Positions 1 through 51,263 of a stretch of 51,263 nucleotides of DNA are shown here, one piece after another (positions within the stretch are counted from its first letter, which is position 1; each line of letters opens with the position of its first letter). The notes under the pieces were generated by a model. That model was not told the origin of the DNA. It searched no databases and saw only the letters and a list, made by a program, of their open reading frames with translations. Where the stretch lies: the IMG/VR virus record IMGVR_UViG_3300010232_000005; one strand, 5' to 3'. Both the position numbers and the translations under genes were made by a program. The stretch is from a virus.

Positions 1-55
1 GTGTCGAATCTTAACGTCGCCCGTGTCGGGTTCAAGGTGCCCGACCCAATCGTCG
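1..55. repeat. 55-bp exact terminal duplication (1-55 = 51209-51263), a signature of a circular or terminally redundant genome
   Basis: Read directly: gtgtcgaatcttaacgtcgcccgtgtcgggttcaaggtgcccgacccaatcgtcg occurs at both window ends. Confidence 0.95.
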
Positions 56-384
56 GCGGCGGCTTCGGCGGGATCGTCGCCGCCGTCGGTTGCGACCGCG
101 TCGCCGACGGCGTCTTCGAAGGCGTCGACGGTGTCGCCGAAGTCACGTTCGGCGTCGGTCGGGTCGCGGTCGTCACCGGTAAGGTGGTCGTCGGCATGAA
201 GCCCGTACGGGTCGCGGTCCTTCAATTCGGCGACGGCCGCTTCGACGTTAGCGGTTAGCGTCGGGTCGGCGTATTCGCCGTCGGGAAGGTTCGCCGCGAC
301 CGGGGCCGTGCGGTCGATATATTCGATTAGCCCGTCGGTCGATTTGTTTGCCGCGTCGAAGTCGGCGTCGGTGTGTCGCACCAT
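1..384 (-). CDS. N-terminal 128 codons of a wrap-around gene (MVRHT-class start). It continues in frame into 51208..50045, for about 515 aa in total.
   Basis: ATG at 384 (ATGGTGCGACACACC = MVRHT). The minus frame has no stop down to position 1. The phase matches the open frame entering the window end once the 55-bp duplication is accounted for. It is absent from the ORF track because it runs off the edge. Confidence 0.75.
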   Translation of the reverse strand, partial: MVRHTDADFDAANKSTDGLIEYIDRTAPVAANLPDGEYADPTLTANVEAAVAELKDRDPYGLHADDHLTGDDRDPTDAERDFGDTVDAFEDAVGDAVATDGGDDPAEAAADDWVGHLEPDTGDVKIRH

Positions 385-422
385 ATCTATACAGTACACC
401 CCCACGTACATAAGTGTGTCGG
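370..422 (-). promoter_or_regulatory. MVRHT promoter/start module, copy 1 (BRE-like CCGACACAC + TTATGTAC + GGTGCGACACACC box)
   Basis: The plus strand reads ggtgtgtcgcacc(370-382)...gtacataagtgtgtcgg(406-422). The same block is seen at 7 other sites. Confidence 0.7.
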
Positions 423-456
423 CGCTTTACACCATTATCAGTTACCGGTGTCGTTT

Positions 457-3619: not shown

Positions 3620-3673
3620 GATTGGGAACTAAAGCGTTCCGGTTCGCCCCCGATTGGGAACATAAGTCGGTGG
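3620..3673 (-). promoter_or_regulatory. Tandem duplicated promoter/operator units upstream of the RHH gene
   Basis: gattgggaac-taaagcg (3620-) and gattgggaac-ataagtcgg (3652-). On the gene strand these read CGCTTTAGTTCCCAATC and CCGACTTATGTTCCCAATC. The proximal TATA-like element starts 30 nt upstream of ATG 3604. Confidence 0.5.
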
Positions 3674-7426: not shown

Positions 7427-9178
7427 TTATGTATTAGTTTTCCCTTCGACGTGTGCGTTCCCTATGTCGATTGAGTTTCCGCTTCGGTTATCAACTAAAA
7501 CCGCAATCGTTTGGTCGCTTCCGCTCGTGTTTGTATAACTTGTGACCGGGTCGCCCGTGACGCGGTCCTGTATTGTTGTTCCGTCACCTTGTATAAGATA
7601 TTTGCGGGAATTGTACCCACCCGAATTATCCAATGTGACTAGTTTCATGTCGACGTCGGTTGGCATAGCTGAAAAACCCCCGTCGACCATTCCGCATTTG
7701 AATACTTCGACTGATTGCCCGTCGCCAATCGAATCGACAAGTAACACCGCTTGGCTTCCGTCCCCGACGCCCGAAGCACTACCTGAGGCGTCGAACGATT
7801 CTTTATAATCATAGGATATTTCGGCGGTAGTTCCGTCACCCGCGTCGGCCGCAGATAGCCCCGATATGAAATCGAATGTCGCAACGTCCGATATTACTTC
7901 GTTTCCGTCGTCGTCGGCGGCTGTGGGTCCACCCGATCCAGTAAAGTCGATTTTTGCCGTTCCATTATCGTCGGCCACTTCTAAATACGTATCGAAGTTT
8001 AGCGAACTCGTCGTCACGGTCGACGTGCCGCTATCTTTGATCGACACGTCGCTTCCACCGCCGCCGGACGTGTACCATTGGGTGTCGTCCGCGAAGACGA
8101 CGGTTGCCCCGTAGTCGGTAACAATCGTTTTCGACGACCCGCCGTCGATACCTTCGCCGCCTTCCGTGTCGATAGTGATATTATTCGATCCGGCACTTCC
8201 GCCGACGTCGACGACGATAACAAAGTTCGCACGGTCGGTCGTGCCTAAATCACTGGTTGCTAATGTCACTGTGACGGCACCGCCCGACGTATCGACGGGC
8301 ACGACTTCGTCGCCCGACGTCGTATAATTCGACGCTTTTGTCGACGAAAAGACGCGTTCGTCGTCGATTTTTAATCGGTTTATGGTCGTCAAAGTCGATA
8401 CTTTTGCGTCGGTAATAGCACCGCTGGCTAGTTGTGTGGTTCCGACGGCGGCGTCGGCTAATTCGTCGGAATCGACTGACCCCGATAGTATTTCCGCCGC
8501 TGTCACCGCGTCGGTTTGTATTTCGTTGGTGTCGACGGCGTCGGTTGCTATCTTGGCATTAGTGACGGAACCGTCGGCTAGTTCGTTTGTGCCGACCGCG
8601 TTCGTCGATATTTTCGCCGTCGTCACCGCACCGTCGGCTATTTTTACCGTCGTAATTGCTCCATCATTTACTTTTGCCTTCGTTATTGCGGAGTCGCTAA
8701 CTTCCGCCGTTTCTATTTGATAGTCGACCCCGGCGTGTGCCCGCCAATTTAAGATGTTGTCGTCGGTTAAGTCGCTAACGTCGTGTTCTATTAAACAAAC
8801 TGCCAAAAGCAATTGGTCGGCCGTTAGTGACGGCGTATCGGGCTTGGGATTAGGCGACCCTTCAATAACAGTATATCCCGGCACCGACGAATCAAACGCC
8901 ACGACGTCGACGCGGCGGTCGTCGTCGCCGTTTGTCGTGGTCGACGGCCCGTCGGATAATGTGAACGAGTTCGACGCGGGTGAATATGACGACCCACCAT
9001 ACCGAAGGTCGGTCGCCGACGCGACTGTAATTCCCATAGCGGTATTTCCGTCGGCCGTGACTTCGGCGTCGCCGTCGTTTTGTATCCCATTCCCGACGAA
9101 CGCTTCGGTGACCGCTTGTAGCAAGACGCCGTGAAACGTTTTCCCCGCCGGGGCTTCGAACGTATCGACTTCGGGCAT
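7427..9178 (-). CDS. Tail fibre protein with a 10 x 10-aa repeat shaft
   Basis: 583 aa. Residues about 161-263 read AITKAKVNDG/AITTVKIADG/AVTTAKISTN/AVGTNELADG/SVTNAKIATD/AVDTNEIQTD/AVTAAEILSG/SVDSDELADA/AVGTTQLASG/AITDAKVSTL. Confidence 0.6.
   Translation of the reverse strand: MPEVDTFEAPAGKTFHGVLLQAVTEAFVGNGIQNDGDAEVTADGNTAMGITVASATDLRYGGSSYSPASNSFTLSDGPSTTTNGDDDRRVDVVAFDSSVPGYTVIEGSPNPKPDTPSLTADQLLLAVCLIEHDVSDLTDDNILNWRAHAGVDYQIETAEVSDSAITKAKVNDGAITTVKIADGAVTTAKISTNAVGTNELADGSVTNAKIATDAVDTNEIQTDAVTAAEILSGSVDSDELADAAVGTTQLASGAITDAKVSTLTTINRLKIDDERVFSSTKASNYTTSGDEVVPVDTSGGAVTVTLATSDLGTTDRANFVIVVDVGGSAGSNNITIDTEGGEGIDGGSSKTIVTDYGATVVFADDTQWYTSGGGGSDVSIKDSGTSTVTTSSLNFDTYLEVADDNGTAKIDFTGSGGPTAADDDGNEVISDVATFDFISGLSAADAGDGTTAEISYDYKESFDASGSASGVGDGSQAVLLVDSIGDGQSVEVFKCGMVDGGFSAMPTDVDMKLVTLDNSGGYNSRKYLIQGDGTTIQDRVTGDPVTSYTNTSGSDQTIAVLVDNRSGNSIDIGNAHVEGKTNT
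8390..8698 (-). repeat. Coding tandem repeat (30-nt period) inside the fibre gene
   Basis: Decapeptide periodicity read from the translation. Confidence 0.7.
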
Positions 9179-9220
9179 GGGTTCGGGTTCGGCGTGCCCG
9201 GTCTTTAGCTTTGGCTACCG

Positions 9221-10216
9221 TTAGGATATTCGAAACTCACTTTCGGAATTAAACCCGACGTTCGACCGTTTCGTGAATTGGCTGAATGTGGTCGCCCATA
9301 GCATACGCCCGTCGCCGTCGAAAACGGCCAATTCGCTTAGGTCGACGGGTTGTATTCCCGATGGTTCCGACTCAAAAATATGCGTTCGCGTAATTATCCG
9401 GTCGCGGTCGATATTTCGCTCGCAATCTTTTCGAAATTGTTCGTCGGTAAGCGACGAATCCGTCTTATCGAAGTCGGTGTCGCCCGACCCGAATGCGAAT
9501 TCTACCGGCCCGGTGGCGGCGTATAGGTCGGCCATAGCGTCACGCACCGCCGTTTCGCCGTCGTTCGTGAATACGGAATTACCGACGCCGTCACCTTCGA
9601 ACGATAGCGTGACGTGCAACCGCACTTCGTCGGTTGGGTCTATATCCCATGTTCCATTAACCACCACACGCGCCAATAGCCGGTCGGATTCGTCGACGAT
9701 CCCATATTCGACCGGGTCGCCGACCCAAGAAACGGAATCATGGCGACCGATTGATTGTAATTCGTTTGACGACGGCTTGTCGTTTATCACGCGTGCGACG
9801 GCGAACACGTTCGTTAGGGCGTCGTCGCTTGTTTGCGGGTCGCTATCATTCGTCCCGGCTTTAGACTTAAATACGCGACCTTCTTGCCCGTCTAAGGCGC
9901 GGACGACGGCCCGACGCCCTTCTTTCGTAAATTCAGCGTCGACGGATACGTCGGAACCCGCTTCGACCCACCCGCCTTTATCGTCGCCAAACGTTCCCCG
10001 GTCAAATCCCTTTGATTCGTCGGGGTGCCCGAAGACGATTTGTGACCCCGTCGACCGCTTATATACCTTCGCGTCGAGGCCGACGTCGACGACTATTACC
10101 GTCGGCCCGAAAAACAAGTTGCGGTCGCGGTTCGAATCGACTTCGATAAATCGGTTACCGACCTTCCGTATTTGCTTGCGGTTTTCGGCGACAATTCGGT
10201 CTATATCACTTGTCAT
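9221..10216 (-). CDS. Tail/baseplate protein (assigned by position)
   Basis: 331-aa ORF within the contiguous tail gene block. Confidence 0.45.
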   Translation of the reverse strand: MTSDIDRIVAENRKQIRKVGNRFIEVDSNRDRNLFFGPTVIVVDVGLDAKVYKRSTGSQIVFGHPDESKGFDRGTFGDDKGGWVEAGSDVSVDAEFTKEGRRAVVRALDGQEGRVFKSKAGTNDSDPQTSDDALTNVFAVARVINDKPSSNELQSIGRHDSVSWVGDPVEYGIVDESDRLLARVVVNGTWDIDPTDEVRLHVTLSFEGDGVGNSVFTNDGETAVRDAMADLYAATGPVEFAFGSGDTDFDKTDSSLTDEQFRKDCERNIDRDRIITRTHIFESEPSGIQPVDLSELAVFDGDGRMLWATTFSQFTKRSNVGFNSESEFRIS

Positions 10217-10220
10217 GTTA

Positions 10221-11039
10221 TTATAGGCTGGGGTGAATTACCGTAATTGTTTTTGGCGATAGCGGGCCGATTGTAACCTCATATTGCCCGTATTCGGTAA
10301 AGTCTATTTCAAACGATACGGTCGCCCCTTGCCCGCTTCGCAATCGGCTTGCTTTTGCGTCGCGTACGATGTCGTCGATATATAGTTGTACTGTTTCTTG
10401 CCGGGTTTGCGAAGATATATTCTCAATATCACACTCGACGGTAAGCGTTTCGGCGACTTCGACCGCCGTATCCGACACCGTCAAATTCGAATACTGGAAT
10501 TCGAACGTGGTTTCGCCGTCGCTATCTCCGGGGTCGTCATTATCGGGGTCGGCGACTGATTCGGATATGTATACTTCTTTCCCCCATATTTCGGTCCCGC
10601 CTTGCGGTATTTCTTGCCCGTTGCGCCCAACCCCGGCCGACTCGTATACCTTTATTCCGGCGGCGGATCGGCCGACTTCATTTGTTATGTCGCTTCGAAA
10701 TTCGTTCGACGAAGTGTATTCGATATTAAATTCGTTATACGAATCAGTGTCTTTTATGAAAGAATCGAACTCAGAAAAAGAATCGAACTTATTTTCGAAG
10801 TTATTCCGGATTGTTTGGGCGCGTCTTTCCGATATTCCATTATCTATTAAGAATTGTTCGAATTCGTTGAAATTGCTTATATTGGCGTCTTCGTATGCGG
10901 ATAGAAAATCGTCCCAATCGCCGCCGAAGGCTTCTTGTAGGTCGATGGCTATCTGTTGACCGTCGAATTCTTGCTTAGTCGGTTGGCGAAGGCCCAACCA
11001 CACTAGTTTTTGTTCCTTTGTTAGTTGTGATTCCGTCAT
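10221..11039 (-). CDS. Tail/baseplate protein with a C-terminal CARDB/Ig-like domain
   Basis: The C-terminus VEVAETLTVECDIENISSQTRQETVQLYIDDIVRDAKASRLRSGQGATVSFEIDFTEYGQYEVTIG fits the CARDB-type beta-sandwich pattern. Confidence 0.4.
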   Translation of the reverse strand: MTESQLTKEQKLVWLGLRQPTKQEFDGQQIAIDLQEAFGGDWDDFLSAYEDANISNFNEFEQFLIDNGISERRAQTIRNNFENKFDSFSEFDSFIKDTDSYNEFNIEYTSSNEFRSDITNEVGRSAAGIKVYESAGVGRNGQEIPQGGTEIWGKEVYISESVADPDNDDPGDSDGETTFEFQYSNLTVSDTAVEVAETLTVECDIENISSQTRQETVQLYIDDIVRDAKASRLRSGQGATVSFEIDFTEYGQYEVTIGPLSPKTITVIHPSL

Positions 11040-11053
11040 AGGTGATTAACTGG

Positions 11054-12499
11054 TTAGGTGTTTATTTGTGTTTGCCCGCTAACGCCTATCGTCGTGTATC
11101 CTTCGGTGGTGCGTGACGTCTTGTCGATTGCGAACGTTCCCGATATGTCTTCTTTCGGCCAATCAATTAATACCGATTGCCCAACTTGAACATTCCGCCA
11201 TACCGACCCCGCAAGCACAAAAGTAATTGCCGAGTCTTGCCATGCGTTATCGTTCAAATAGCCCCGTGCCCGTGCCGCTAGCTGTTCGCGGGTTCGAAGC
11301 GACCCGTCATTGATCGGTTCGGATCGGGGCGCTTGTTCATTATAGAATTCTACCGATGCCGTATCTTCGTACGTTGCTTGTAGGTCGTCACGACCTTGTA
11401 TGGTGACGACATTCGTGACGTCGAAGTCGCGGTCGACGGTGACGTCGACGACTTGCGTGCCGGAATCGTCGCGTATTTCGTACAAAGCACCTTCGTCGCC
11501 GGCCGATTCGAAAATAAGTCGGTTGTTTTCGTCGGCAAAGACGGTAGCACCCGCTTCAATCGCTAACGAATCCGCTAACGATAGTATGGATTCGTTCACC
11601 GTTCGCGTGATTTGATCGTCGGTGTCGTCGATAACGTACGTTAGTGCCGTATTTCTATCATTCACTGTGAACGGTGTCGCCCGCGCCATGTCGATAGCCG
11701 CCGCCCTATGTTCCGGTAATGTCCCTTGCACTTCGAAACGATACCTTAGCGTGTGGGGCGTGTTCCCGGTGGTTATTTTGGCGTCTTCGACGTCGAATTG
11801 ATACGTTCGCCATGTCGCTATTCCGCGTATCGGTATTTCCCATTCGTACCCGATTCCGTCGCCGTCGACTAATTCGACATACACGTCGAAGACGTTACCC
11901 CGGTTATTTACGACCATTCGGGTTTCGAATTCGTATATTCGACGGCCCGGTGCCGCTTCCGACGGTACATTATCGAATGTGACTTCGTACGATCCCGATT
12001 CGCCTTCTAATATTCCGACGAAAATTGTATCACGACCGAAGTTATTGATTCCGGAAGAATCATTAGTTAATTCGAATATATCCGATTCCGACGACCAATT
12101 CGACGTATCATCGGCAAACGATATTTTCCGACTTGTGGTGTAATTTTCTATTTCTTTGTTGATTGCACGGCGGAGTATTTCGGCCCGCGACAACTCGATA
12201 AACGGGCGGTTTACCTTCCCGTGTTCGGCTTGCCCCGCTAACGTTTCCGCTTCGATTGTTAGCGTTAGGTTTCGCATTTGTTGGTTCGACGGCTTCCCAA
12301 TTATTTCGCCCGACCACTGTTTGTCGCCGCCTTCGAATATTTCGACGTCGGCACCGGATACGGCTAAGGATCGGTTCGACGAACTATTGGCGACGACTGT
12401 TTCGGCGGTTCCGATTGAATCACCCGACGGTTTTTCGTATTTTACGTCGATTATGTTGGTCGGTTCGGTGCCGTCAATTTCGACGATTGGTGTTACCAT
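11054..12499 (-). CDS. Tail tip/baseplate hub protein (Tal-like by position)
   Basis: 481 aa, second gene downstream of the tape measure. Confidence 0.45.
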   Translation of the reverse strand: MVTPIVEIDGTEPTNIIDVKYEKPSGDSIGTAETVVANSSSNRSLAVSGADVEIFEGGDKQWSGEIIGKPSNQQMRNLTLTIEAETLAGQAEHGKVNRPFIELSRAEILRRAINKEIENYTTSRKISFADDTSNWSSESDIFELTNDSSGINNFGRDTIFVGILEGESGSYEVTFDNVPSEAAPGRRIYEFETRMVVNNRGNVFDVYVELVDGDGIGYEWEIPIRGIATWRTYQFDVEDAKITTGNTPHTLRYRFEVQGTLPEHRAAAIDMARATPFTVNDRNTALTYVIDDTDDQITRTVNESILSLADSLAIEAGATVFADENNRLIFESAGDEGALYEIRDDSGTQVVDVTVDRDFDVTNVVTIQGRDDLQATYEDTASVEFYNEQAPRSEPINDGSLRTREQLAARARGYLNDNAWQDSAITFVLAGSVWRNVQVGQSVLIDWPKEDISGTFAIDKTSRTTEGYTTIGVSGQTQINT

Positions 12500-16174: not shown

Positions 16175-17008
16175 TTAGGTGTCGAACACGGCGTCGTTAA
16201 AGACGTCGCGGCACCGGGGGCACATATCGTCGTACACGTTCACCCACGCCCCAAGCGTCACGGCGTCGTCGACGTCGTCGACGGGGTCGCCGGACGTGGT
16301 TAGCCCGCCGACAAGCGTTCCGCATAGGGCGACGTTTTCGGCGTCGGCCGTCGTAAGGTGTTTCGGTTCCCGGTCGGGGGAAACGTGCCGCACGTCTTTG
16401 AAGTCGAAGTCGGGGTCGGCGTGTTCGTGGTCGTGGTCGTGGTAACATTCCAGACACCGGTAGCCGTCGTGCGTTTCCCGCATTGATTCGCGGGGGCGGT
16501 TTACGCCGCACCACGCACAGTCGGTCGGCGTCGGATCGACCGACGACCGGGGTTGTTGGGTGTCGTCGTGTTCCGGCGGGTGCCCGCCGTCGGTGTAAAC
16601 GTCGGGGTCGTCGCCGTCGGCTTCGACGGTAATTCCGACGACCGTTCCCATTTCGCGGCGGTCGCCGCCGTCGCCGTGACGACCCGAAACGGCGGTGTAA
16701 AGCGTCGGGGCGTCACCGTTCCCGACCGTCGACGCGACTTGGTGATCGTTCTTGCCGTCGGCGTCGTAATCGACGCGGTAGTATGCGTTTTCGTTCACCC
16801 ACGTACGCGGTTCCGTGCCGTGCGTCGTACCCGATTCGACGGCTTCGGTGTTGGTGACGGTTCCGCGTTCGGTTTGCCGTTCGCCGTTCACGTCGACGTA
16901 TTCGACTTCGACCGTGTCGCCTTCCGCGACGTCGCCCGCGACGATAGCGTCGAAGGCTTGAAGGTCGTTTTCGAACCGTACGTCGTCGGTGGTGGTGTGT
17001 CGCACCAT
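16175..17008 (-). CDS. MVRHT-class protein with C-terminal Cys/His clusters (a moron inside the structural module)
   Basis: MVRHTTTDD... CAWCG...CLECYHDHDHEH...CPRC. It has its own promoter module at 16994-17050. Confidence 0.7.
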   Translation of the reverse strand: MVRHTTTDDVRFENDLQAFDAIVAGDVAEGDTVEVEYVDVNGERQTERGTVTNTEAVESGTTHGTEPRTWVNENAYYRVDYDADGKNDHQVASTVGNGDAPTLYTAVSGRHGDGGDRREMGTVVGITVEADGDDPDVYTDGGHPPEHDDTQQPRSSVDPTPTDCAWCGVNRPRESMRETHDGYRCLECYHDHDHEHADPDFDFKDVRHVSPDREPKHLTTADAENVALCGTLVGGLTTSGDPVDDVDDAVTLGAWVNVYDDMCPRCRDVFNDAVFDT

Positions 17009-17050
17009 ATCTACCTATTGGGGGTGGGGGTACATAAGTGTAACGGTGTC
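16994..17050 (-). promoter_or_regulatory. MVRHT promoter/start module, copy 2
   Basis: ggtgtgtcgcaccat...gtacataagtgtaacggtgtcc. Confidence 0.7.
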
Positions 17051-26697: not shown

Positions 26698-27111
26698 TTA
26701 GTCGTCGCCCCAATCGCCGCCATATCGAAGCCTGCGGGCGGGCGTCATGTTCCCCGACCCCTTTGCGGGGTCGCCGTTCGTGCCGGTGCAATACGAACAC
26801 GGCGGGCGGTGTGACACGTCGCGGGTCGTCGATAACATGAAGTCGACGGCGGATTCGTCGCCGCCGCGAAGGGCACACACGGGGCGGGGTTCCGCGTCGT
26901 CGTGGTCGGCGTCGACCACCTTGCACGGCCCCGGTTCGTCGGGTTCGGTGTCGGCGTACCACACGACGTCGCCGTCGGCGTCGGTAACGGGTTCATGTGC
27001 CGCCCGCCCATGCGTCGACCGTGCCCGGCACGCGACTTCGTCGCCGTCGTGGTACACGTCGGTCGTTATACAGTTCCTACCGTCGTCGTCGGAAGTGCTT
27101 GCTTTCGCCAT
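26698..27111 (-). CDS. Hypothetical Cys-containing protein
   Basis: 137 aa, preceded by the GGTGCGACACACC box in its 5'UTR. Confidence 0.55.
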   Translation of the reverse strand: MAKASTSDDDGRNCITTDVYHDGDEVACRARSTHGRAAHEPVTDADGDVVWYADTEPDEPGPCKVVDADHDDAEPRPVCALRGGDESAVDFMLSTTRDVSHRPPCSYCTGTNGDPAKGSGNMTPARRLRYGGDWGDD

Positions 27112-27112
27112 A

Positions 27113-27167
27113 GGTGTGTCGCACCGTACACGCTACAATACCCCCACTGGGTATAAATATATACTGG
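27113..27167 (-). promoter_or_regulatory. Variant module: TATA (TTTATAC) plus the GGTGCGACACACC box used as a 5'UTR
   Basis: Gene strand: atatatttatacccagtgggggtattgtagcgtgtacGGTGCGACACACCtATGgcg. Confidence 0.55.
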
Positions 27168-28688: not shown

Positions 28689-28705
28689 GGTAAAAGCGTG
28701 CCGGT
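28689..28705 (-). promoter_or_regulatory. Consensus promoter ACCGGCACGCTTTTACC
   Basis: The plus strand reads ggtaaaagcgtgccggt. Confidence 0.5.
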
Positions 28706-29590: not shown

Positions 29591-29608
29591 TTACAAAAGC
29601 GTGCCGGT
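29591..29608 (-). promoter_or_regulatory. Consensus promoter ACCGGCACGCTTTTGTAA, with its CTTTT element starting 27 nt upstream of the methyltransferase ATG
   Basis: The plus strand reads ttacaaaagcgtgccggt. Confidence 0.5.
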
Positions 29609-29959: not shown

Positions 29960-30160
29960 TTACCGCCCCCCGTCGCGGCGTGCCTTCATGTCGCGGGCTT
30001 CGGCGTCGTGAACCGACTTTTCGCGTCGGGCGTGAATGTCTTCCGGGCCGTCGTTCATCCGGTCGTACGCCCATGCGACGGCGGAATTATTTGCCCGCTT
30101 GTAATCGTCGTCTTGTTCGGCGATTCGGTCTTCAATCGTTCGGTCGGTGTGTCGCACCAT
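29960..30160 (-). CDS. MVRHT-class small protein (66 aa)
   Basis: MVRHTDRTIEDRIAEQDDDYKR... Confidence 0.6.
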   Translation of the reverse strand: MVRHTDRTIEDRIAEQDDDYKRANNSAVAWAYDRMNDGPEDIHARREKSVHDAEARDMKARRDGGR

Positions 30161-30234
30161 ACCCTATCTTACGTTCCCAGGTACATAAGTGTATCGTTGT
30201 ATATCGGTGTGTAATCCACCGACACATTTATTAC
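30146..30234. promoter_or_regulatory. Divergent promoter region: MVRHT module copy 3 (minus) and CACCGACACATTTATTAC (plus)
   Basis: ggtgtgtcgcaccat...ggtacataagtg on one side and caccgacacatttattac (30217-30234) on the other. Confidence 0.6.
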
Positions 30235-31682: not shown

Positions 31683-31705
31683 GTAATTATTCCGGCTTGT
31701 AAGGT

Positions 31706-31757
31706 ACCGACACACTTTTGTACCCATGTTCCGTACGGGTTCACATGGTGCGACACC
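31706..31757 (+). promoter_or_regulatory. MVRHT-type module, plus-strand variant (copy 8)
   Basis: ACCGACACACTTTTGTACCCatgttccgtacgggttcacATGGTGCGACACC. Confidence 0.6.
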
Positions 31758-32161
31758 ATGACGACATCGACGAATCTACCTTCGCGGTCGGCGTGACGTG
31801 CCGGCGGTGCTATGCGTCTTCGACCATTCCCGTCGACGACGTCGAACACTTCGGCCCCGCCTTCGTATGGGCGTGCCCGGCGTGTTACACCGACGACGCC
31901 GACGGGTACGACTATACTATCGCCGACACGTACGAAGTCGACGGCGTAGTCGTAGCGACCGACGGCGTCGAACCTGTTCATTCCGTCGACGATCACTCCG
32001 ACGACGGCGACTTGCTTACCGACACCGAACGCGGCGACGTCGTCGCCGTCGAAGTCGAAGGGGCGTCATGTGCCGACCGTGCCCGCGAACGCGGCGTCGC
32101 CCGTGGCACCGTGACGAAGACGGTCGCCCGTGCCCGGCGGAAGATTCGGGGCGACGCCTAA
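31745..32161 (+). CDS. Zn-finger plus sigma-70-region-4-like HTH protein (MVRHH start)
   Basis: CRRC...CPAC, then the C-terminus CADRARERGVARGTVTKTVARARRKI, similar to the ECF sigma region 4 / small-terminase HTH pattern (GxS.GTVKSRL.RAR.KL). It is convergent with terL and the stop codons overlap. Confidence 0.5.
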   Translation: MVRHHDDIDESTFAVGVTCRRCYASSTIPVDDVEHFGPAFVWACPACYTDDADGYDYTIADTYEVDGVVVATDGVEPVHSVDDHSDDGDLLTDTERGDVVAVEVEGASCADRARERGVARGTVTKTVARARRKIRGDA

Positions 32162-34261: not shown

Positions 34262-34302
34262 AGGGTGCGTTTAATGTTCGTGTATGGAAAGCGTGCCGGT
34301 CC

Positions 34303-35704: not shown

Positions 35705-36118
35705 CTATTCGCTGGCCGGCATTTCGGGAAGGTCGACCGTTTCGAAGCCAATACTGTCGACGAAGTGTGCGTCGCCGTCGACGACGATAATGTCGCCCGT
35801 CGCCATGCTTCGGGTGCTCCCGGGGTCGTGCCCCTTGCCCGCTTCCCACGCTTTGTAAGCGGCGGCTTCGGGCGACCGTGACGCGGGCACGTCGACTTCA
35901 ACGGTGCCGGCTTCGACGTACGCGGCGTCGAAGACGTCGGTTCGAACTTCGCGGTGAATGATACGCCCGTGGTTGACCGCCCATTCATACCCCATGCGAA
36001 TGTCGCGGGTAAGTTCGAACGCGTCGTCGTCTTCGTCGACGAAACGCGTGTGGTAAACCGTCGCTTCGTGGGTGGTCGTGGTCGATCCGTCGTCGTTCGC
36101 TTCGGTGTGTCGCACCAT
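35705..36118 (-). CDS. MVRHT-class protein (137 aa)
   Basis: MVRHTEANDDGSTTTTHEATVYH... Confidence 0.65.
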   Translation of the reverse strand: MVRHTEANDDGSTTTTHEATVYHTRFVDEDDDAFELTRDIRMGYEWAVNHGRIIHREVRTDVFDAAYVEAGTVEVDVPASRSPEAAAYKAWEAGKGHDPGSTRSMATGDIIVVDGDAHFVDSIGFETVDLPEMPASE

Positions 36119-36158
36119 ATCTACCTATTAGGCACCGGGGTACATAAGTGTGTCGGTG
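36104..36158 (-). promoter_or_regulatory. MVRHT promoter/start module, copy 4 (reference copy)
   Basis: Gene strand: CACCGACACACTTATGTACCCCGGTGCCTAATAGGTAGATATGGTGCGACACACC. Confidence 0.7.
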
Positions 36159-36220: not shown

Positions 36221-36718
36221 ATGGTGAGGTTGAACGGCGATTACGTCGACGACGACGAAGCGTTACTTAGCCTTATAGAATCGTTAGAAAAGACCCACCC
36301 CGGACTAGCCGACGCTGTGCGTGCCGTACGCCGTGCCCGTCGAATCAAAACGTCGGAATTGGTCGGCGGCGACAATATGATCGGTGCCCGCGTTACGTTC
36401 GTCGACAATGACGGCGACCCGCACCGGGGCGTCGTGATTGAACCGGAAGTTTCCAGTATGCCCGGCGGCGAAGCGTACGATCCGAACCGCGACGAATTCG
36501 TCGACCCGTCGGATTACCCAATGGGTACCGTTCAATTAGTGCGGGGCGACGGGTGGGAATTCGGAATCGACGGGTTCTTCGACCGGATCAAATCAGAAAA
36601 AGACGGTCGGGGGCTTCGGGCTGAAACGTCGGTGACGCCGGCACGGGAACCGGATTCGGCGTATTGTTACTTCGCCGGGTGGGATTACTTCGACGAACAC
36701 GCCGACGTCGACGGCTAG
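36221..36718 (+). CDS. Hypothetical acidic protein
   Basis: 165-aa ORF (MVRLNGDYVDDDE...), divergent from the 36118 gene. Confidence 0.6.
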   Translation: MVRLNGDYVDDDEALLSLIESLEKTHPGLADAVRAVRRARRIKTSELVGGDNMIGARVTFVDNDGDPHRGVVIEPEVSSMPGGEAYDPNRDEFVDPSDYPMGTVQLVRGDGWEFGIDGFFDRIKSEKDGRGLRAETSVTPAREPDSAYCYFAGWDYFDEHADVDG

Positions 36719-38913: not shown

Positions 38914-38991
38914 GACACCCGTACGGTGGTCGAACACAGGAAAAAGCGTGCCGGTGGCTGGCTGAGTGATAGGGTTGGTGGAGGTCGGTTC

Positions 38992-40297: not shown

Positions 40298-41110
40298 TTA
40301 GTCGTCGATACGCCCGTCGTGGGCGACGTCGACGTCGACGTCGTCGGGAAGCCGTTCGGCGACTACGTCTTGAATCGCGTCGGCGGTCGATTGAACCGTA
40401 TTGTGCGGGAATTCGTCGACGGCGTCGTCGGCAAGCCCATACGCGTCGACCGTGAACGAATGTCCGGGGGGGAAGTCGATACGGGCGCACTTCCCGACTT
40501 CGCGGTCGCCGCCCCGGTACGACTTCGACACGACCGACCGTTCGAACACGGCTTCGACTTCGACCGTGCGGTCGCGGCGGGCGTGGTACCCCCGAACACG
40601 GTCGCCTTCCCAATCGACCGACACGTCGTCTAAGCGAATCGTCTTCATGTTCCCCGACCGGTTCGACCGATAGTGAACCGTGACAGAAACGTCGTCTTGA
40701 ACGGCCCCGGTGACGGGTGCCGGATCGGGTAGTTCAACCATGAAGACGTCGACGTCTTCGGCGACCTTGCGGTACGTGTGGTCGTCGCCGTACCGGTACA
40801 GGTTCATGTTATCGGTGACGGCGAACCCTTGGTCGTCGTCGTGAAACGTGTACGACGACCGGTCGTCGGGAAGTCCCCGGTCGCGGTCGCGGTCGGTCGC
40901 CCGCGTCCCTTGTATCGACCGCACGGTCTTCGTGTTCCCGTGCGACGTCGTGTATTCGAATTCTAACGCCGTGCGGCGGGTCGAAACGGCACGGGCGTCG
41001 GAAGACACGGTAAGCCCGCCGAAGCGGGTGTACGTGACGTCGTCGCGGTCGATTGGTTCGCGGTGTTCGCGGTACGGTTTGGCGTATTCGGCGTCGGTGT
41101 GTCGCACCAT
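40298..41110 (-). CDS. MVRHT-class protein (270 aa)
   Basis: MVRHTDAEYAKPYREHREPIDRDD... Confidence 0.65.
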   Translation of the reverse strand: MVRHTDAEYAKPYREHREPIDRDDVTYTRFGGLTVSSDARAVSTRRTALEFEYTTSHGNTKTVRSIQGTRATDRDRDRGLPDDRSSYTFHDDDQGFAVTDNMNLYRYGDDHTYRKVAEDVDVFMVELPDPAPVTGAVQDDVSVTVHYRSNRSGNMKTIRLDDVSVDWEGDRVRGYHARRDRTVEVEAVFERSVVSKSYRGGDREVGKCARIDFPPGHSFTVDAYGLADDAVDEFPHNTVQSTADAIQDVVAERLPDDVDVDVAHDGRIDD

Positions 41111-41150
41111 ATCTACCTATTAGGTGCGGGGGTACATAACTGTGTCGGTG
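41096..41150 (-). promoter_or_regulatory. MVRHT promoter/start module, copy 5
   Basis: ggtgtgtcgcaccatatctacctattaggtgcgggggtacataactgtgtcggtg. Confidence 0.7.
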
Positions 41151-43516: not shown

Positions 43517-43653
43517 GCTATCGTGGTCGTGCGGGGGGAGCTAAAGCGTGCCGGTGATCGACGTGTGGCGTATAAACTGTATGTTGGGATATAGAACGTT
43601 AGCCGGTGGCAAAGTCGAAGTCGTCACGAACCGACCGTTTCCTAGGCGGGTGA

Positions 43654-44724
43654 TTATAGCCCGCGCCGGTCGGTTAGCGGTATGTCGTGGTGCGCGTCGG
43701 GGTTGGGGTCGTCGCACTTGGCTTCGACTTCGTCGGCTAGTTCCCGCAATTTTTCGGCAAGGTCGGTTACTTCGTCGTACCCCGGCGGCGTCGATAAGAA
43801 CGTATCTTCGACTTCCTCGGCGATTGCACGGGCGTCGTCGGGTGATAGTAGTCGGCGGGGGTTGTTCCCAAGCGTGAACCACACGCCGCCGTCGCGGTAG
43901 TTGGCGGCGACCGACACGTCTTCGCCCGGCGGCTTCCCCCCGTCGGTGCGTATGTCCGGGTCGGCCCCGGCTTCTAGTGGCGACATTAGGGCGTCGTACA
44001 CGCCGTCGACGCGGTCGTCGTCGACGTCGGGGTTTTTGATCCTGTTTGCCGACGACGCTATCAGTAGGCCGATAAAGCCCGATTCGTGTTCGGTTAGCCG
44101 GACGACTTCTTTGCCGCCGCCGTGCATGACGGTTAGGGTGACGTGGTACGTGTCGGTTCCGCCGTCGGATAGTATTTCGACGCCTTCGTCGTCGGGGTGT
44201 GCGTCGTTGTCGCCCCAAACGTGCCGGGGTTCGGGGTCGGGTCGCCGTGCGGCGTCGGCGGGGAATCCCGCCGCGTGGGGGCCGGCGTGTCCGTCGTCAC
44301 GTTTGCACCGTTCGCCGTTCGGCCCGCGTTCGCCGCACTTGCCGTCGATTATCACGCCTTCGTCGCCCGCGACGATTATGTCGTCGCCGCCGTCGGTCGC
44401 GGGTTCGCGTCGAAGGGTCGAATCCCGTGCGATAGTGGCGTGAAAGCCGTCGTCGTCGACGACCGATAGCGTGCCGGTACCGTTCCGCACGTACAGGGTT
44501 CCGGTGTCAGACCGCACTTTCACCGATTGGCTGACTTCGTCGCCGTTCATGGTATGAATTGTCGATTCGACGACTTCCCCGGTAACGCGGCCCGCTTCGT
44601 CGGCCCCCATAGGGACCGCTTTGACTTCGACACGGTCGCCTTCGGCAAGGTCGTGTGCGTCGACTGTTTCGTCGGTCGTGGCTTCGATACGGTCGCCGGT
44701 CGTGGTGTCGGTGTGTCGCACCAT
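43654..44724 (-). CDS. MVRHT-class protein (356 aa)
   Basis: The start was moved to the MVRHT ATG at 44724 (the track started 16 codons upstream, inside the promoter). Confidence 0.65.
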   Translation of the reverse strand: MVRHTDTTTGDRIEATTDETVDAHDLAEGDRVEVKAVPMGADEAGRVTGEVVESTIHTMNGDEVSQSVKVRSDTGTLYVRNGTGTLSVVDDDGFHATIARDSTLRREPATDGGDDIIVAGDEGVIIDGKCGERGPNGERCKRDDGHAGPHAAGFPADAARRPDPEPRHVWGDNDAHPDDEGVEILSDGGTDTYHVTLTVMHGGGKEVVRLTEHESGFIGLLIASSANRIKNPDVDDDRVDGVYDALMSPLEAGADPDIRTDGGKPPGEDVSVAANYRDGGVWFTLGNNPRRLLSPDDARAIAEEVEDTFLSTPPGYDEVTDLAEKLRELADEVEAKCDDPNPDAHHDIPLTDRRGL

Positions 44725-44762
44725 GTCTACCTGTTCACAACGGGGGTACGTAAATGTGGCGA
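44710..44762 (-). promoter_or_regulatory. MVRHT promoter/start module, copy 6
   Basis: ggtgtgtcgcaccatgtctacctgttcacaacgggggtacgtaaatgtggcga. Confidence 0.65.
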
Positions 44763-44782
44763 TAGTTAACAACCAAGACGGG

Positions 44783-45555: not shown

Positions 45556-45923
45556 GGTTGGGTCGCCGCGTCGACGAAGCGGATTCCAGCGTATCCGTAT
45601 GCGAAGGTGAACACGCCGCCGACGATTAGTGCCGTGTGAACGTCGCCGTACGCCGCCGCAAGCGACGTCGCACCGTACGCGACCGATAGGGCACCGACGC
45701 CGACGAACAGGTACAGCCCCGCCATGACGCCCGCGACGACGCGTATGGACATGGTGGGGATCGACGCCCGCCGAAGCCGGTCGCGCAAGCCCTTGGCCCC
45801 GTCGCGGAACGTGTCGAAATGGTCCCAATCGGGGCGAAGGTCTTCGCTTGGCGGGCCGTCGGCGTTGGTCGGGTCGCCCGTCGTGTCGACTTTGCGGTCG
45901 ATTGATCGGTCGTCGGTCGCCAT
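45552..45923 (-). CDS. Membrane protein with two predicted transmembrane helices
   Basis: MATDDRSIDRK...IRVVAGVMAGLYLFVGVGALSVAYG...ALIVGGVFTFAYGYAGI. TAATG overlap with PCNA. Confidence 0.55.
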   Translation of the reverse strand: MATDDRSIDRKVDTTGDPTNADGPPSEDLRPDWDHFDTFRDGAKGLRDRLRRASIPTMSIRVVAGVMAGLYLFVGVGALSVAYGATSLAAAYGDVHTALIVGGVFTFAYGYAGIRFVDAATQP

Positions 45924-46720
45924 TATCGTGTATCTATGCGGGGGGCTTGAACAATTTTGGTGTCGACGACGTCGTTCCGGGTTGTCCAAATAAAGTATGG
46001 CATTTCCGGCCCGGACACGAATCGCACCGTGTCTTTGTCCAATAGGTCGACGACTTCCGATATGTAATCGTTCGATTGGCGGCACACGACGGCGTCCTCG
46101 GGGGGGTCTTCGTTCCATGCGAAGGCGTCGGATTCATGAACGCGAACGGTGCCGGCGTCGTCGTCTCCGTGCCCTTCGATTATGAACGTGCCGTCGTCGC
46201 CGCCCATGCGAAAGGTTGCGACCGTCGTGTTCATCTCGACGATTTGCGACGCCCGGTCGAACTTGTCGACCGGCATTGTGACGTCGATAACAAACGGTTT
46301 ATCGTCGTCGACGTCGGGCACGTCGGCCGGCGACCCTTTCACGCCGTCGGGTGTGATCCCCGCCATTTCGTAATCGACGTCGTCGGCCGTGAACGACCAT
46401 TTGTATGCTTCCCAATCCCACCCGAAGTCGACCGGCACGTCGTCGATTGCAGCCAATAGGTCGTCGAAGCGTTCGGTATTGATCCCCGACTCGAAAGTAT
46501 CGTCGACTTCGTAAATGTCGAACGCGTCGGGGTCGATGTTTTGCCGGATTAGCGCAACGTTTGCGGCGTCTTTGGTCGTCGTGCGGAAGCCCGCCGGCCC
46601 GAATTCGAAGACGGATTCGGTGATACTACTAAGCCCGTTCACACCGTCGACGACCGTTTGCCATAGGTCGGCGTCGGCGATTGTGTCGACCGTCGGTTCT
46701 TGTGACTGTGATTGTGACAT
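45923..46720 (-). CDS. pcn: PCNA sliding clamp
   Basis: 265 aa starting MSQSQSQEPTVDTIAD. The C-terminal IVQAPRIDTR matches the archaeal PCNA (M/V)LAPRI motif. Length and domain periodicity fit PCNA. The track's 409-aa version runs through the tRNA genes and was rejected. Confidence 0.8.
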   Translation of the reverse strand: MSQSQSQEPTVDTIADADLWQTVVDGVNGLSSITESVFEFGPAGFRTTTKDAANVALIRQNIDPDAFDIYEVDDTFESGINTERFDDLLAAIDDVPVDFGWDWEAYKWSFTADDVDYEMAGITPDGVKGSPADVPDVDDDKPFVIDVTMPVDKFDRASQIVEMNTTVATFRMGGDDGTFIIEGHGDDDAGTVRVHESDAFAWNEDPPEDAVVCRQSNDYISEVVDLLDKDTVRFVSGPEMPYFIWTTRNDVVDTKIVQAPRIDTR

Positions 46721-46781
46721 AGTTCGGTGTCGCTTTTGGTGTCGGGTCGCGTCGACCCGCCGACCCCTTGCGGGTCGGGAA

Positions 46782-46884
46782 CCGGGAAACGCGGATTCGA
46801 ACCGCGTCGGGTGTACCATATTCCCGTGGTCGTGGGTATTTGTGGGTCGCCCCGTTGCTGGCGACTTCCGCCATGATTTTCCCG
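46782..46884 (-). ncRNA. 103-nt tRNA-like element with a canonical T-arm and 7-bp acceptor stem but an aberrant body
   Basis: T-arm cgcgg-ttcgaat-ccgcg. The acceptor stem pairs cgggaaa with tttcccg. The middle contains only a 6-bp hairpin with an 8-nt loop (gtcgcc-agcaacgg-ggcgac). I could not fold a D-arm or a 7-nt anticodon loop by eye. Confidence 0.35.
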
Positions 46885-46957
46885 CCCCATTCGGGTCGGT
46901 ACCTAACGGCGGCGGCAAACCGTCGGCGGGGTGGGGGTCAAACCCATTTCCCGCGAA

Positions 46958-47040
46958 TGACACGGGCCGGATTCGAACCGGCGAAGCCCTTCGGCAAGCG
47001 GTCTTAAGCCGCACGCGTTCGGCCGCTTTGCTACCGTGTC
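46958..47040 (-). tRNA. tRNA-Leu (anticodon UAA), type II with a long variable arm
   Basis: gacacgg-ta-gca..gcg-tgcgg-CTTAAGA-ccgct-tgccgaagggcttc-gccgg-ttcgaat-ccggc-ccgtgtc-a. The acceptor and T-arm are perfect. The D stem and the first anticodon-stem pair are imperfect. Confidence 0.6.
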
Positions 47041-47103
47041 GAAAGGGGGGCGGATATACGGGGTCCAGACACCGACGCCCCGCCCCTAAGACGCCGCCCC
47101 CGA

Positions 47104-47176
47104 TAGTCGGGCACGGATTCGAACCGTGGTCGCCGGTTCCAAAGACCGACATGATTGGCCGCTACACCACCCGACT
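47104..47176 (-). tRNA. tRNA-Gln (anticodon UUG)
   Basis: agtcggg-tg-gtgt-agcggccaa-tcat-g-tcggt-CTTTGGA-accgg-cgac-cacgg-ttcgaat-ccgtg-cccgact-a. From memory, the 5' AGUC... and GGCCAAUC D-loop resemble haloarchaeal tRNA-Gln. Confidence 0.7.
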
Positions 47177-47200
47177 TCGCTTTATTTGGCGTGCGGGGCA

Positions 47201-47220
47201 GGTAAAGGCGTGTCGGTGGT
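47201..47220 (-). promoter_or_regulatory. Consensus promoter (ACCACCGACACGCCTTTACC) driving the tRNA-PCNA operon
   Basis: The CTTTACC element starts about 30 nt upstream of the tRNA-Gln 5' end. Confidence 0.5.
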
Positions 47221-47490
47221 CTATTCAGACCCGGACGGCGGCGTGGTGCGTTCCGATCCGAAGACCGCTAATACGTCGTTCACGCAATCGTCGCACAGTG
47301 TCGCCGTCGACCGTGACGGCGGCGGCGAATTCGTATTCGCCCCGGCGTTCCCGTCGTAATGCTTTACTTCGACGTCATGGGCGTTATCGTTTTTCAGAAG
47401 GAAGGCGTCGCACCCTTCCCCGTCGCATAGTTCGCCGCGTTCGACTTTCGATTCGTCGATTATCGTACCGTCGGGTAGGAGTAGCGTCAT
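47221..47490 (-). CDS. Small Cys-containing protein
   Basis: 89-aa ORF (…CDGEGC…CDDC…). Confidence 0.5.
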   Translation of the reverse strand: MTLLLPDGTIIDESKVERGELCDGEGCDAFLLKNDNAHDVEVKHYDGNAGANTNSPPPSRSTATLCDDCVNDVLAVFGSERTTPPSGSE

Positions 47491-49888: not shown

Positions 49889-50060
49889 AATAGAAAACCC
49901 ACATAGGAATTGAAACTTCGATTCGCTATGCCGGTCGGGGGCGTTGTCGTGTCACAACGGACAGAAAACCCTCGTAGGGATTGAAACACGTGTCGAAGGG
50001 TGTCGACGACACCGCCCCCGACCGTCACAACGGACAGAAAACCCTCATAGAGATTGTAAC
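49880..50060 (+). CRISPR. Mini-CRISPR array: 3 repeats (37 nt) and 2 spacers (34 and 36 nt), with no cas genes
   Basis: R2 (49951-49987) is gtcacaacggacagaaaaccctcgtagggattgaaac. R3 (50024-50060) matches R2 at 34/37. R1 (49880-49916) is repeat-like only in its 3' 25 nt (22/25). The spacers are 49917-49950 and 49988-50023. The strand was inferred from the ATTGAAAC 3' end. Confidence 0.8.
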
Positions 50061-51263
50061 GACCCGCGAAGGTCGGTGCGACACCGGTCGGGGCACGCGA
50101 CGATTAGGTCGACGTTTTCGGTCGTGTTCCACCGGCTAAGTTTCACGGTGTATTTGTTCCGGTACGCATGAAGCCGCTTCCCGCACCACACGCACCGGGC
50201 AAGTTCGTCGAAGACCGCGTCGCCCTTGTCGGTCGCTTCCCACCGGGCGGCGGGGTCGTCGAAATCGGCGTCGTCTTCGTCGTCGACACGTCGGATTAGC
50301 CCGGCGTCGCGGGCTTCCCGAAGCACGACACGCCAATTCGAATCGTTGTGTGCGACGCCGTCGGGCCGGCGAAGCCCGGTGCCGGGCGACCCGTGCCCCT
50401 TCACGCGGCGTTCGCCTTGTTTCCCCGTCGGGCACGCCGGGGCGTCGTCGACGTCGGTGTCGTCGTCGCCCGACGCGATCCATGCGGGGTAATATTTGAC
50501 GTCACGAAGCAAGTCGCGGAACTTGCCGGCGGTGACGGAAGCGAAGTCGTCGAACAGGTCTTCGACGTCGTCGGGAAGGTCGGCGTCGGCGACCGACCAT
50601 TCGGGGTCGTCTTCGCACGCGTCGCACACGGGGTCGTCTTCCGCCGGGTGCGACCGTTCGGCACCGACGTCGCGTTCGGCACCGCACCGGGCACATTCGA
50701 ACGTGTCGATATAGGCGTCGGCGACTTTTTCGGCGTCGTCGTCTTCGTACGGGTCGCCGTCGTATTCCGCCGGAACGTGTGCGTCGTCGCGCACGCCGAC
50801 TACGAACCGTGAAAGGGCAAGTCGGCGAACGATTCGGGCGGTGTCGGCCTTGTCGTCTTCGTCGGCGTCGTCGACCCATTCGTCGGGGTCGAAGTCGTCG
50901 TCGTCGACGCCATGTTCGAAGACCGTGTCGTGCGGAACGGTGACGCGGTACCACGACGGCGTTTTGTGGTTCGGCTTGTCGTCGGGCGTCGGGCGGTATC
51001 CGACCGCCGCTTCGAACGGGCACCCGTCGCCGTCGCAGGTGTGCCGAATGACGTCGCCGTCGTAATCGGTCGTAAGGTCGTGATCGGGGTGGGGGCACGT
51101 ATAGCCGCCCGTGAATCCAAGCGAATCGGCGTCGGCGGTGTCGTCGTATTGTTCGACGACCTTGTGAACGACGACGCCGTCTTCGACGACTGTGCGGATT
51201 GATTGGTCGTGTCGAATCTTAACGTCGCCCGTGTCGGGTTCAAGGTGCCCGACCCAATCGTCG
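50045..51263 (-). CDS. C-terminal part of the wrap-around MVRHT-class multi-zinc-finger protein
   Basis: The frame of track ORF 50045..50794 is open upstream all the way to the window end (…DDWVGHLEPDTGDVKIRHDQSIRTVVEDG…CPHPDH…CDGDGC…). CARCG/CDAC and CVWCG/CPDRC pairs are present. The last 5 codons overlap CRISPR repeat R3. Confidence 0.7.
   Translation of the reverse strand, partial: DDWVGHLEPDTGDVKIRHDQSIRTVVEDGVVVHKVVEQYDDTADADSLGFTGGYTCPHPDHDLTTDYDGDVIRHTCDGDGCPFEAAVGYRPTPDDKPNHKTPSWYRVTVPHDTVFEHGVDDDDFDPDEWVDDADEDDKADTARIVRRLALSRFVVGVRDDAHVPAEYDGDPYEDDDAEKVADAYIDTFECARCGAERDVGAERSHPAEDDPVCDACEDDPEWSVADADLPDDVEDLFDDFASVTAGKFRDLLRDVKYYPAWIASGDDDTDVDDAPACPTGKQGERRVKGHGSPGTGLRRPDGVAHNDSNWRVVLREARDAGLIRRVDDEDDADFDDPAARWEATDKGDAVFDELARCVWCGKRLHAYRNKYTVKLSRWNTTENVDLIVACPDRCRTDLRGSLQSL

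Follow-up and report, generated by a model that had tools for sequence, protein, structure and literature searches.

Repeated promoters are already known in haloviruses. The myovirus HF2 carries repeated intergenic units of ~30-58 bp with a correctly spaced B recognition element (BRE) and TATA element; these units fall into two classes in one genome, have measured activity, contain a conserved motif across the start, and are conserved in related viruses, and the authors proposed that virus-encoded factors act on them (Russ, Pfeiffer and Dyall-Smith 2021, PMC8707807). In the virus Hardycor1, a repeat that overlaps three coding sequence (CDS) starts gives identical MNANT N-termini, which was mentioned in passing (Dyall-Smith et al. 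2021, PMC7911831). Here, we describe a repeat of this kind in IMG/VR virus record IMGVR_UViG_3300010232_000005, whose whole stretch of 51,263 nucleotides is referred to as the window. It is the genome of an uncultured tailed haloarchaeal siphovirus, distantly related to the Haloarcula virus HCTV-2 and to HHTV-2. Eight copies of a promoter module each directly precede a gene and are oriented with it, and six of these genes begin with the same start sequence, ATGGTGCGACACACC, translated as MVRHT. The 13-nt core of this sequence, GGTGCGACACACC, is called the box below. The box is a clear new example of a repeated halovirus element, not a new kind of element; what is new is its nucleotide-level invariance across a clade of metagenomic viruses, its untranslated variant, a two-class promoter layout, the shuffling of cassettes, and two candidate factors.

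As in HF2, the repeated units stand before genes and form two classes in one genome (here the boxed class I and a class with the motif ACCGGCACGCTTTTAC), and sequence and relative position are conserved in relatives (here in 37 modules and in matching slots). The HF2 alpha, beta, and gamma motifs had 0 matches in the window. Unlike in HF2, which is a myovirus with measured promoter activity, the promoters of this siphovirus are known from sequence alone, and the block that is conserved best falls within the coding part of genes predicted to be leaderless.

A scan of the window for ATGGTGCGACACACC with up to 2 mismatches gave seven matches, all on the - strand, against a chance expectation of 0.04, and none of the shuffled sequences reached seven. 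Six of the matches are exact. The seventh, at 27113-27127, is an ACG variant, ACGGTGCGACACACC, and the box itself is exact at 7/7 of these - strand sites. On the + strand, the variant ATGGTGCGACACCATG, which encodes MVRHH, begins at 31745. A CGACACACTTATGTAC-like block precedes all eight sites with 0 to 3 mismatches; the scan with CGACACACTTATGTAC gave 8 matches versus 0.3 expected, one of which, at 31012, looks like chance. The architecture TTATGTAC, 21 nt, ATG is common to all eight copies, and all exact boxes of the window sit in modules, with a constant distance between TATA element and box. The box, CGACACACTTATGTAC, and spacing scans thus bear out the block at the eight sites listed by the first-pass annotation of this DNA, and its six genes with an identical start box and products of 66 to 515 aa were found as described (515, 277, 66, 137, 270, and 356 aa). 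Its proposal that the box echoes the core of the BRE-like element did not hold, as the exact upstream core CGACACAC is present in only 3/8 modules and relatives read CGGTACAC. We rejected a direct repeat of the CGACACAC core between BRE and box as not conserved; core motifs this short are too frequent to carry information.

The geometry of the modules was examined in a set of 37 distinct modules with the exact 13-nt box, drawn from this genome and from ~10 metagenomic contigs of relatives. The A/T content peaks at 95-97% at -28 to -26, where a TATA-like TTAT spans -29 to -26; A or T occupies -10 in 89% and -11 in 78% of the modules, and T occupies -1 in 86%, with +1 being the A of the ATG. The measured haloarchaeal consensus has a TATA element TTWT centred at -27/-28 and WW at -10/-11, and most haloarchaeal transcripts begin at the start codon (Brenneis et al. 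2007, PMC2151090). Because the module geometry matches this consensus, transcription is predicted to start at the A of the ATG, which agrees with the TATA-like element ~29 nt upstream and the leaderless transcripts proposed earlier. Each copy is very probably a complete archaeal promoter cassette that would start a leaderless mRNA at this position. The BRE position holds a conserved ACCGRYACAC with no match to the haloarchaeal BRE consensus CGAAA, and a CCGAC.CAC-type block at the same position recurs in the class-II promoters of the window and in the virus HGTV-1.

Relatives were collected from IMG/VR, ENA, JGI, and Logan contigs, with terminases 62-86% identical, and each of the related virus contigs bears the box several times; the contigs of this clade reach 42-50 kb. 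In the 37 modules, the box is invariant at 13/13 positions, with every synonymous site included. In ungapped comparisons of orthologous modules, it is 97% identical, versus 33-46% for the upstream and downstream flanks; the coding flanks diverge between modules as BRE and TATA do. At least three clade-specific flavours of BRE, TATA, and -10 region stand before the same box, such as TTATGTAC..AATAGGTAGAT and TTTATACAC..CAAGTAGGGGT. With the genome's own codon usage, the exact codon choice for one MVRHT peptide has a probability of 0.0095. In four viruses (the window, L005, L006, and L022), the box is also found untranslated, 0-1 nt before the ATG of a conserved 137-aa gene. Because the synonymous sites are invariant, the flanks diverge, and the box is kept in a 5' untranslated region, we are confident from these comparisons that selection on the box acts on the nucleic acid and not on the peptide VRHT. 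The alternative that MVRHT is conserved at the protein level, as an N-terminal signal or in paralogous products, is effectively excluded. MVRHT is indeed common to all six products, and the 277-aa and 356-aa proteins share a weak local similarity (E = 0.004, in a tiny database), but pairwise comparison of the module-led products found no other similarity past the first residues. Pfam assigned no family to any of them, and the PHROG matches were a weak one of unknown function for the 137-aa protein and helix-turn-helix (HTH)-related ones for the MVRHH protein. The lack of similarity beyond MVRHT noted from the sequence was thus confirmed by pairwise search, Pfam, and PHROG, and paralogy was rejected for want of shared families and of general pairwise similarity. 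On an inhibition of host defence by these products, the Pfam and PHROG matches are uninformative either way.

More distant relatives have modified starts: ATGGTGCGAAGCACTACC, ..AGCAATACC, and ..AAGACC in L007, ATGGTGCGAACCACTACC in L023 and L024, ATGGCGCGACACACC in L025, and ATGGTGCGAAGCACGACC, ..CAAGCGACC, and ..AACAACACC in L027-L029, which also have an untranslated version, AAGGTGCGATACAATG. From these variants, the universal core is GGTGCGA at +3 to +9, and the invariance over 13 nt is confined, among the contigs compared, to the main clade. TATA element plus box were sought in 185,579 genomes, with one chance match, in a Planctomycetota metagenome-assembled genome, and no provirus; the same pattern had no match in metagenome contigs. 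Two IMG/VR matches, L019 and L020, have a 16-mer without promoter and were dropped as chance.

The nearest isolate, HCTV-2 (L002, NC_021319), has four modules of the form CCTTTATGGTG-N21-ATGGCGCAGCAGAC with the N-terminus MAQQ (Table 1). The architecture is the same, the start box matches the one described here at 11/15 positions, and the L025 start is intermediate. HCTV-2 differs in having its own box, and no TFB-like homologue was found in the phage isolate collection. We found no description of the HCTV-2 modules in the literature examined and no comparable start module in HHTV-2. The HCTV-2 start at 47030 falls 27 nt within the CDS annotated at 47003-47266, which points to a mis-called start of this CDS.

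The box could also work as RNA. GGTG(CGACA)CACC can fold as a 4-bp hairpin of -3 kcal/mol, which is predicted in most module mRNAs, so that a 5'-terminal tag or hairpin, GGUG(CGACA)CACC, on every class-I mRNA would control stability, leaderless translation, or processivity, possibly via a viral RNA-binding protein or nuclease. We consider this rather unlikely. The predicted position fits, as the element would always be transcribed, in a single orientation and at the extreme 5' end, and in the untranslated variants a GGUG, partially Shine-Dalgarno-like, stands 7-10 nt before the AUG. With the 3' end of 16S rRNA, this GGUG is the only part of the box that would pair. Pairing is kept or extended in ATGGTGcgaCACCAT, at 31745 and in the L022 orthologue, and in the variants of L007 and L023, and a change of C15 to U leaves a G-U pair. 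However, no compensatory double change in the stem was found among the box variants of relatives: in L025, the change of U5 to C breaks a pair and is uncompensated, and in L027-L029, the 3' half is free to vary. We therefore rejected covariation as support for a hairpin or palindrome, the changes being only one-sided, and with no covariation such a structure is unproven. The imperfect palindrome pointed out in the first-pass annotation fares no better, as only GGTGCGA survives in the deeper clades. The stem has just 4 bp, and an Rfam scan of the window returned two tRNAs and nothing else, with no match at the box. Pairing of the start codon's G within the stem should moreover hinder leaderless initiation. 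A conserved 5'-leader hairpin, CCGGG-GCGA-CCCGG, is nevertheless found in the Hardycor1 modules, which speaks for an RNA element. The Hardycor1 promoter, CCGATATACTTATGTAC..AATAG, resembles the one here, with TTATGTAC..AATAG common to both, yet in Hardycor1 a leader of ~35 nt with the GCGA-loop hairpin stands before the ATG and the box is different, whereas leaderless mRNAs are predicted here. We found six such repeats in Hardycor1 (L009, MT152698), upstream of 7479, 15266, 25290, 35321, 37079, and 40968, each with TTATGTAC..AATAG, a conserved leader of that length, the hairpin with its GNRA-type loop, and then ATGAACGCGAACACC.

A second promoter class lacks the box. Its motif, ACCGGCACGCTTT(T/A), is found 25-28 nt ahead of many other ATGs, also predicted to be leaderless, with 16 matches versus 2 expected. 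The class-II family ACCGGCACGCTTTTAC is conserved in relatives, and no box follows its start. The usual order is a boxed module, one or two orphan open reading frames (ORFans), and then a class-II promoter with conserved genes. The box was earlier taken for a signal shared by one temporal class of genes, and it does mark one of the two promoter classes of the genome, which may also be a temporal one. Near copies of the class-II motif occur at 3631, 15180, and 22495.

The genes behind the boxes turn over quickly. Of the 32 distinct module-led proteins from related viruses, 17 lack a homologue in this genome, and domain chimeras account for several of the rest. The backbone genes are collinear between the window and the 20-kb locus L022, while different boxed cassettes occupy matching slots. 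Protein turnover and this comparison lead us to conclude that the boxed cassettes head fast-evolving accessory genes and mark sites of gene exchange; the shuffling of gene cassettes raised in the first-pass annotation is thus supported, the contents of the cassettes being exchanged between relatives on a collinear backbone. Directly ahead of its terminase region, at 9173-11357, L022 has three boxed cassettes in tandem with a single gene each (237, 252, and 174 aa), and two of the three genes have no homologue in the window.

Comparable cassettes are the promoter(early) stem-loops (PeSLs) of T4-type phages, which consist of a sigma-70 promoter and a terminator stem-loop and flank ORFans (Arbiol et al. 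2010, PMC2839356). For HGTV-1, a review describes a TATA element plus inverted-repeat motif before most left-arm ORFs, which was likened to PeSLs and to genome shuffling (PMC3950731). The modules here are likewise small repeated promoter cassettes at ORFans in variable regions, where relatives differ by indels and replacements. Unlike PeSLs, they have an archaeal promoter, and their weak 4-bp dyad downstream of the start is no terminator. In HGTV-1 (L031, NC_021328), CCGACGCACRTTAGATATAAATG recurs before genes near 930, 5820, and 8760, and the CCGAC.CAC block at its BRE position resembles both promoter classes of the window. Recombination might then be the primary function, with identical cassettes serving as PeSL-style homology patches that shuffle genes. 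The missing homologues, the chimeras, and the differing or tandem cassettes per slot of L022 are what this would produce, but homology patches should be evenly conserved, and here spacer and BRE diverge around 13 invariant nucleotides. Stretches of 13 to 55 bp are also short for homologous exchange, and no box-reading recombinase was identified in this analysis. We regard this function as improbable; the shuffling is better viewed as a consequence of repeated regulatory DNA.

In Sulfolobus viruses, early and anti-defence genes stand under one regulatory sequence, and they are believed to be repressed by a viral HTH protein, Aca8 (PMC11065993). The likeness lies in one highly similar regulatory sequence before many small, unrelated, fast-evolving genes. 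The Sulfolobus virus motif, unlike the box, lies upstream of the genes, and the viruses are crenarchaeal, haloviruses not being covered in that paper; its gene set includes anti-defence genes, whereas the genes here are known by sequence, with function unassigned. Based on this precedent, on a gene that resembles a regulator and has a palindromic box, and on the class specificity, our first choice, held tentatively and with somewhat less than even confidence, is that the box is an operator for a shared regulator of its promoter class. GGTGCGACACACC at +3 to +15 would be read as nucleic acid by one sequence-specific DNA-binding protein, which would switch the whole boxed class together. Bound there, the protein would block the recruitment or escape of RNA polymerase and so silence a set of accessory genes, probably early ones. 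The N-terminus MVRHT, inherited by every first gene, would be one by-product; another would be that related viruses swap accessory genes at the identical cassettes, which act as portable units of expression.

The binder may be the Zn-ribbon/HTH protein of 138 aa encoded at 31745-32161, whose own start is the palindromic ATGGTGcgaCACCAT, kept in the L022 orthologue. It has an N-terminal CxxC..CPxC Zn ribbon. Sigma70_r4 models match the C-terminal domain in members of its family (best E = 6.9e-6), and in its AlphaFold model (predicted local distance difference test score, 82) the C-terminal ~45 aa superpose on SigR region 4, with a root mean square deviation of 0.8 A, and on KorA. Judged from these models, it is the best candidate for a protein that binds the box. 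Short, near-invariant, oriented sites that recur at many promoters or gene starts of a mobile genome and serve one regulator are familiar from the KorA operators of plasmid RK2, the stoperators of mycobacteriophage L5, and the start-associated sequences of cluster K; KorA is a global plasmid repressor with identical operators at many promoters. The candidate's HTH superposes on KorA, but the comparison is an analogy only; those systems, unlike the present one, are bacterial, with sites that do not lie inside start codons.

Several observations weigh against an operator and against this binder. Because the HTH domain is short, its Foldseek E-values are weak (0.09-0.6). The L014 orthologue of the 138-aa gene has no box, although the invariant box is present elsewhere in L014. 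Sets of operators are usually somewhat degenerate, and here 13/13 positions are invariant. The deeper clades keep GGTGCGA only, with a varying right half, which leaves no conserved symmetric site for a dimer. The position of the box is also fixed to ~2 nt relative to the predicted start, noncoding copies included, and an initiator or a 5'-RNA tag would account for this no less well than an operator. Finally, mutation of the start motif of HF2 abolished activity without any viral protein, which favours a core-promoter role (PMC8707807).

The last two points lead to another reading, in which the box belongs to the core promoter, as an extended initiator or an initially transcribed sequence that the host polymerase would need to initiate strongly or to escape, possibly with a viral TFB-core paralogue and with no dedicated regulator. 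The tie to the predicted start holds for the untranslated variants, too, the all-clade core GGTGCGA at +3 to +9 is roughly as long as the first RNA-DNA hybrid, and the HF2 gamma motif spans the mapped start, its mutant being inactive in uninfected Haloferax. The TFB-core paralogue, in addition, belongs to the conserved core genes of precisely this virus group. We nevertheless think an initiator doubtful. An optimum for initiation does not need 13 invariant bases, the class-II promoters of the same genome lack the box, and we know of no sequence-specific downstream core element in archaeal promoters. HCTV-2 has analogous modules, but the phage isolate collection yielded no TFB-like homologue, and the paralogue lacks the Zn ribbon and B-reader, the parts that reach the start site.

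The paralogue, of 327 aa, is encoded divergently from the module at 384. It has two cyclin repeats and an extra C-terminal helical domain of ~135 aa, matches Pfam TFIIB (3e-18), aligns to Pyrococcus TFBc from residue 13, and has the Foldseek match 1AIS_B with a TM-score of 0.81. Its family comprises ~20 homologue clusters of 297-360 aa, all on virus-sized contigs of 50 kb or less, and in 6/6 related loci checked the gene is divergent from a boxed gene of ~500 aa. The protein could divert the initiation of host transcription, either as a decoy or by re-directing it. A link between this protein and the box was considered and left as unproven: the two are co-conserved, yet HCTV-2 has modules and a search of the phage isolate collection found no homologue.

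A broader proposal, which we advance only as a speculation that is probably not right, is that the 13-nt tag may be the handle of a virus-specific plug-and-play expression system, as a coding-embedded operator or 5'-RNA tag read by the Zn-ribbon/HTH protein or the TFB-core paralogue. If so, any gene placed behind a cassette would at once be expressed and co-regulated at the cost of an MVRHT N-terminus, and this would be an archaeal cassette system, possibly with a viral mimic of a general transcription factor. For temporal control in haloarchaeal tailed viruses, a field about which next to nothing is known, the box and its candidate regulator offer a testable pair of cis element and regulator. 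As in Sulfolobus viruses, the box could be used to pick co-regulated, fast-evolving, possibly early or anti-defence genes in metagenomic haloviruses. The cassette also accounts for shared N-termini by which annotation and clustering by homology could be led astray, and it is a documented case of genes exchanged cassette by cassette while the backbone is conserved. As a ready-made leaderless expression signal that is predicted to be strong, it could be tried in haloarchaeal genetics.

The positions of modules, promoters, and genes are collected in Table 1. The 515-aa ORF exists only because the ends of the window overlap by 55 bp in a circular genome, and the 66-aa ORF is plausible as a real gene. 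A gene at 36221-36718 on the + strand, divergent from the module at 36118, also begins with ATGGTGAGG (MVR..); its start stands behind a different TATA-like element, GTAAAAG, and is a degenerate relative of the box or a coincidence.

Table 1. Promoter modules, class-II promoters, and associated genes in the window, and the start modules of HCTV-2
Feature	Coordinates	Strand	Details
Class-I module	370..424	-	BRE-like/TATA 406-421, spacer, ATG at 384, box 370-382
Class-I module	16994..17048	-	ATG at 17008
Module with untranslated box ACGGTGCGACACACC	27113..27167	-	Gene ATG at 27111
Class-I module	30146..30200	-	ATG at 30160
Variant module	31705..31759	+	Start box ATGGTGcgaCACCAT, a perfect 6-3-6 palindrome
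Class-I module	36104..36158	-	ATG at 36118
Class-I module	41096..41150	-	ATG at 41110
Class-I module	44710..44764	-	Most diverged BRE/TATA; ATG at 44724
Exact ATGGTGCGACACACC, six sites	370-384, 16994-17008, 30146-30160, 36104-36118, 41096-41110, 44710-44724	-	
Class-II core ACCGGCACGCTTT, exact copies	43543..43555, 38943-38955, 34288-34300, 29596-29608, 28693-28705	-	No box
MVRHT gene, 515 aa, 5' part	1..384	-	Crosses circular junction, runs on to 50045
MVRHT gene, 515 aa, 3' part	50045..51263	-	Last 55 bp duplicate first 55 bp
MVRHT gene, 277 aa	16175..17008	-	ORFan between head and tail genes
MVRHT gene, 66 aa	29960..30160	-	Stop overlaps start of next gene, ~29957
MVRHT gene, 137 aa	35705..36118	-	
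MVRHT gene, 270 aa	40298..41110	-	
MVRHT gene, 356 aa	43654..44724	-	
137-aa gene downstream of untranslated box	26698..27111	-	
MVRHH gene, 138 aa	31745..32161	+	Zn ribbon and sigma-region-4/KorA-like HTH; convergent with terminase gene
TFB/TFIIB-core paralogue, 327 aa	498..1481	+	Divergent from module at 384; own promoter class-II-like
HCTV-2 modules	16116, 47030	+	
HCTV-2 modules	34135, 31185	-	

The two ends of the window have 55 bp in common (1-55 and 51209-51263), and from this overlap the genome is circularly closed and complete, with ~51,208 bp. The G+C content is ~60%, the encoded proteins are strongly acidic, and the - strand carries almost all genes. Encoded are a portal, an S78 protease, a large terminase, an Hjc resolvase, a DNA methyltransferase, an HNH nuclease, and two tRNAs. 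The portal is 45% identical to that of HCTV-2 and 43% identical to that of HHTV-2, both Saparoviridae. A megablast of 12 kb against phage isolates gave no DNA-level match, the kinship with these two viruses being detectable at the protein level only; the virus was placed as an uncultured relative based on this missing isolate match and the portal similarity. A scan for bacterial-type promoters and terminators stayed at background level, as expected in an archaeal virus. The two tRNA genes, at 46958-47040 and 47104-47176 on the - strand (Rfam scores of 47.5 and 56.4 bits), overlap a 409-aa ORF (45923-47152); this ORF is therefore likely to be shorter or no gene at all.

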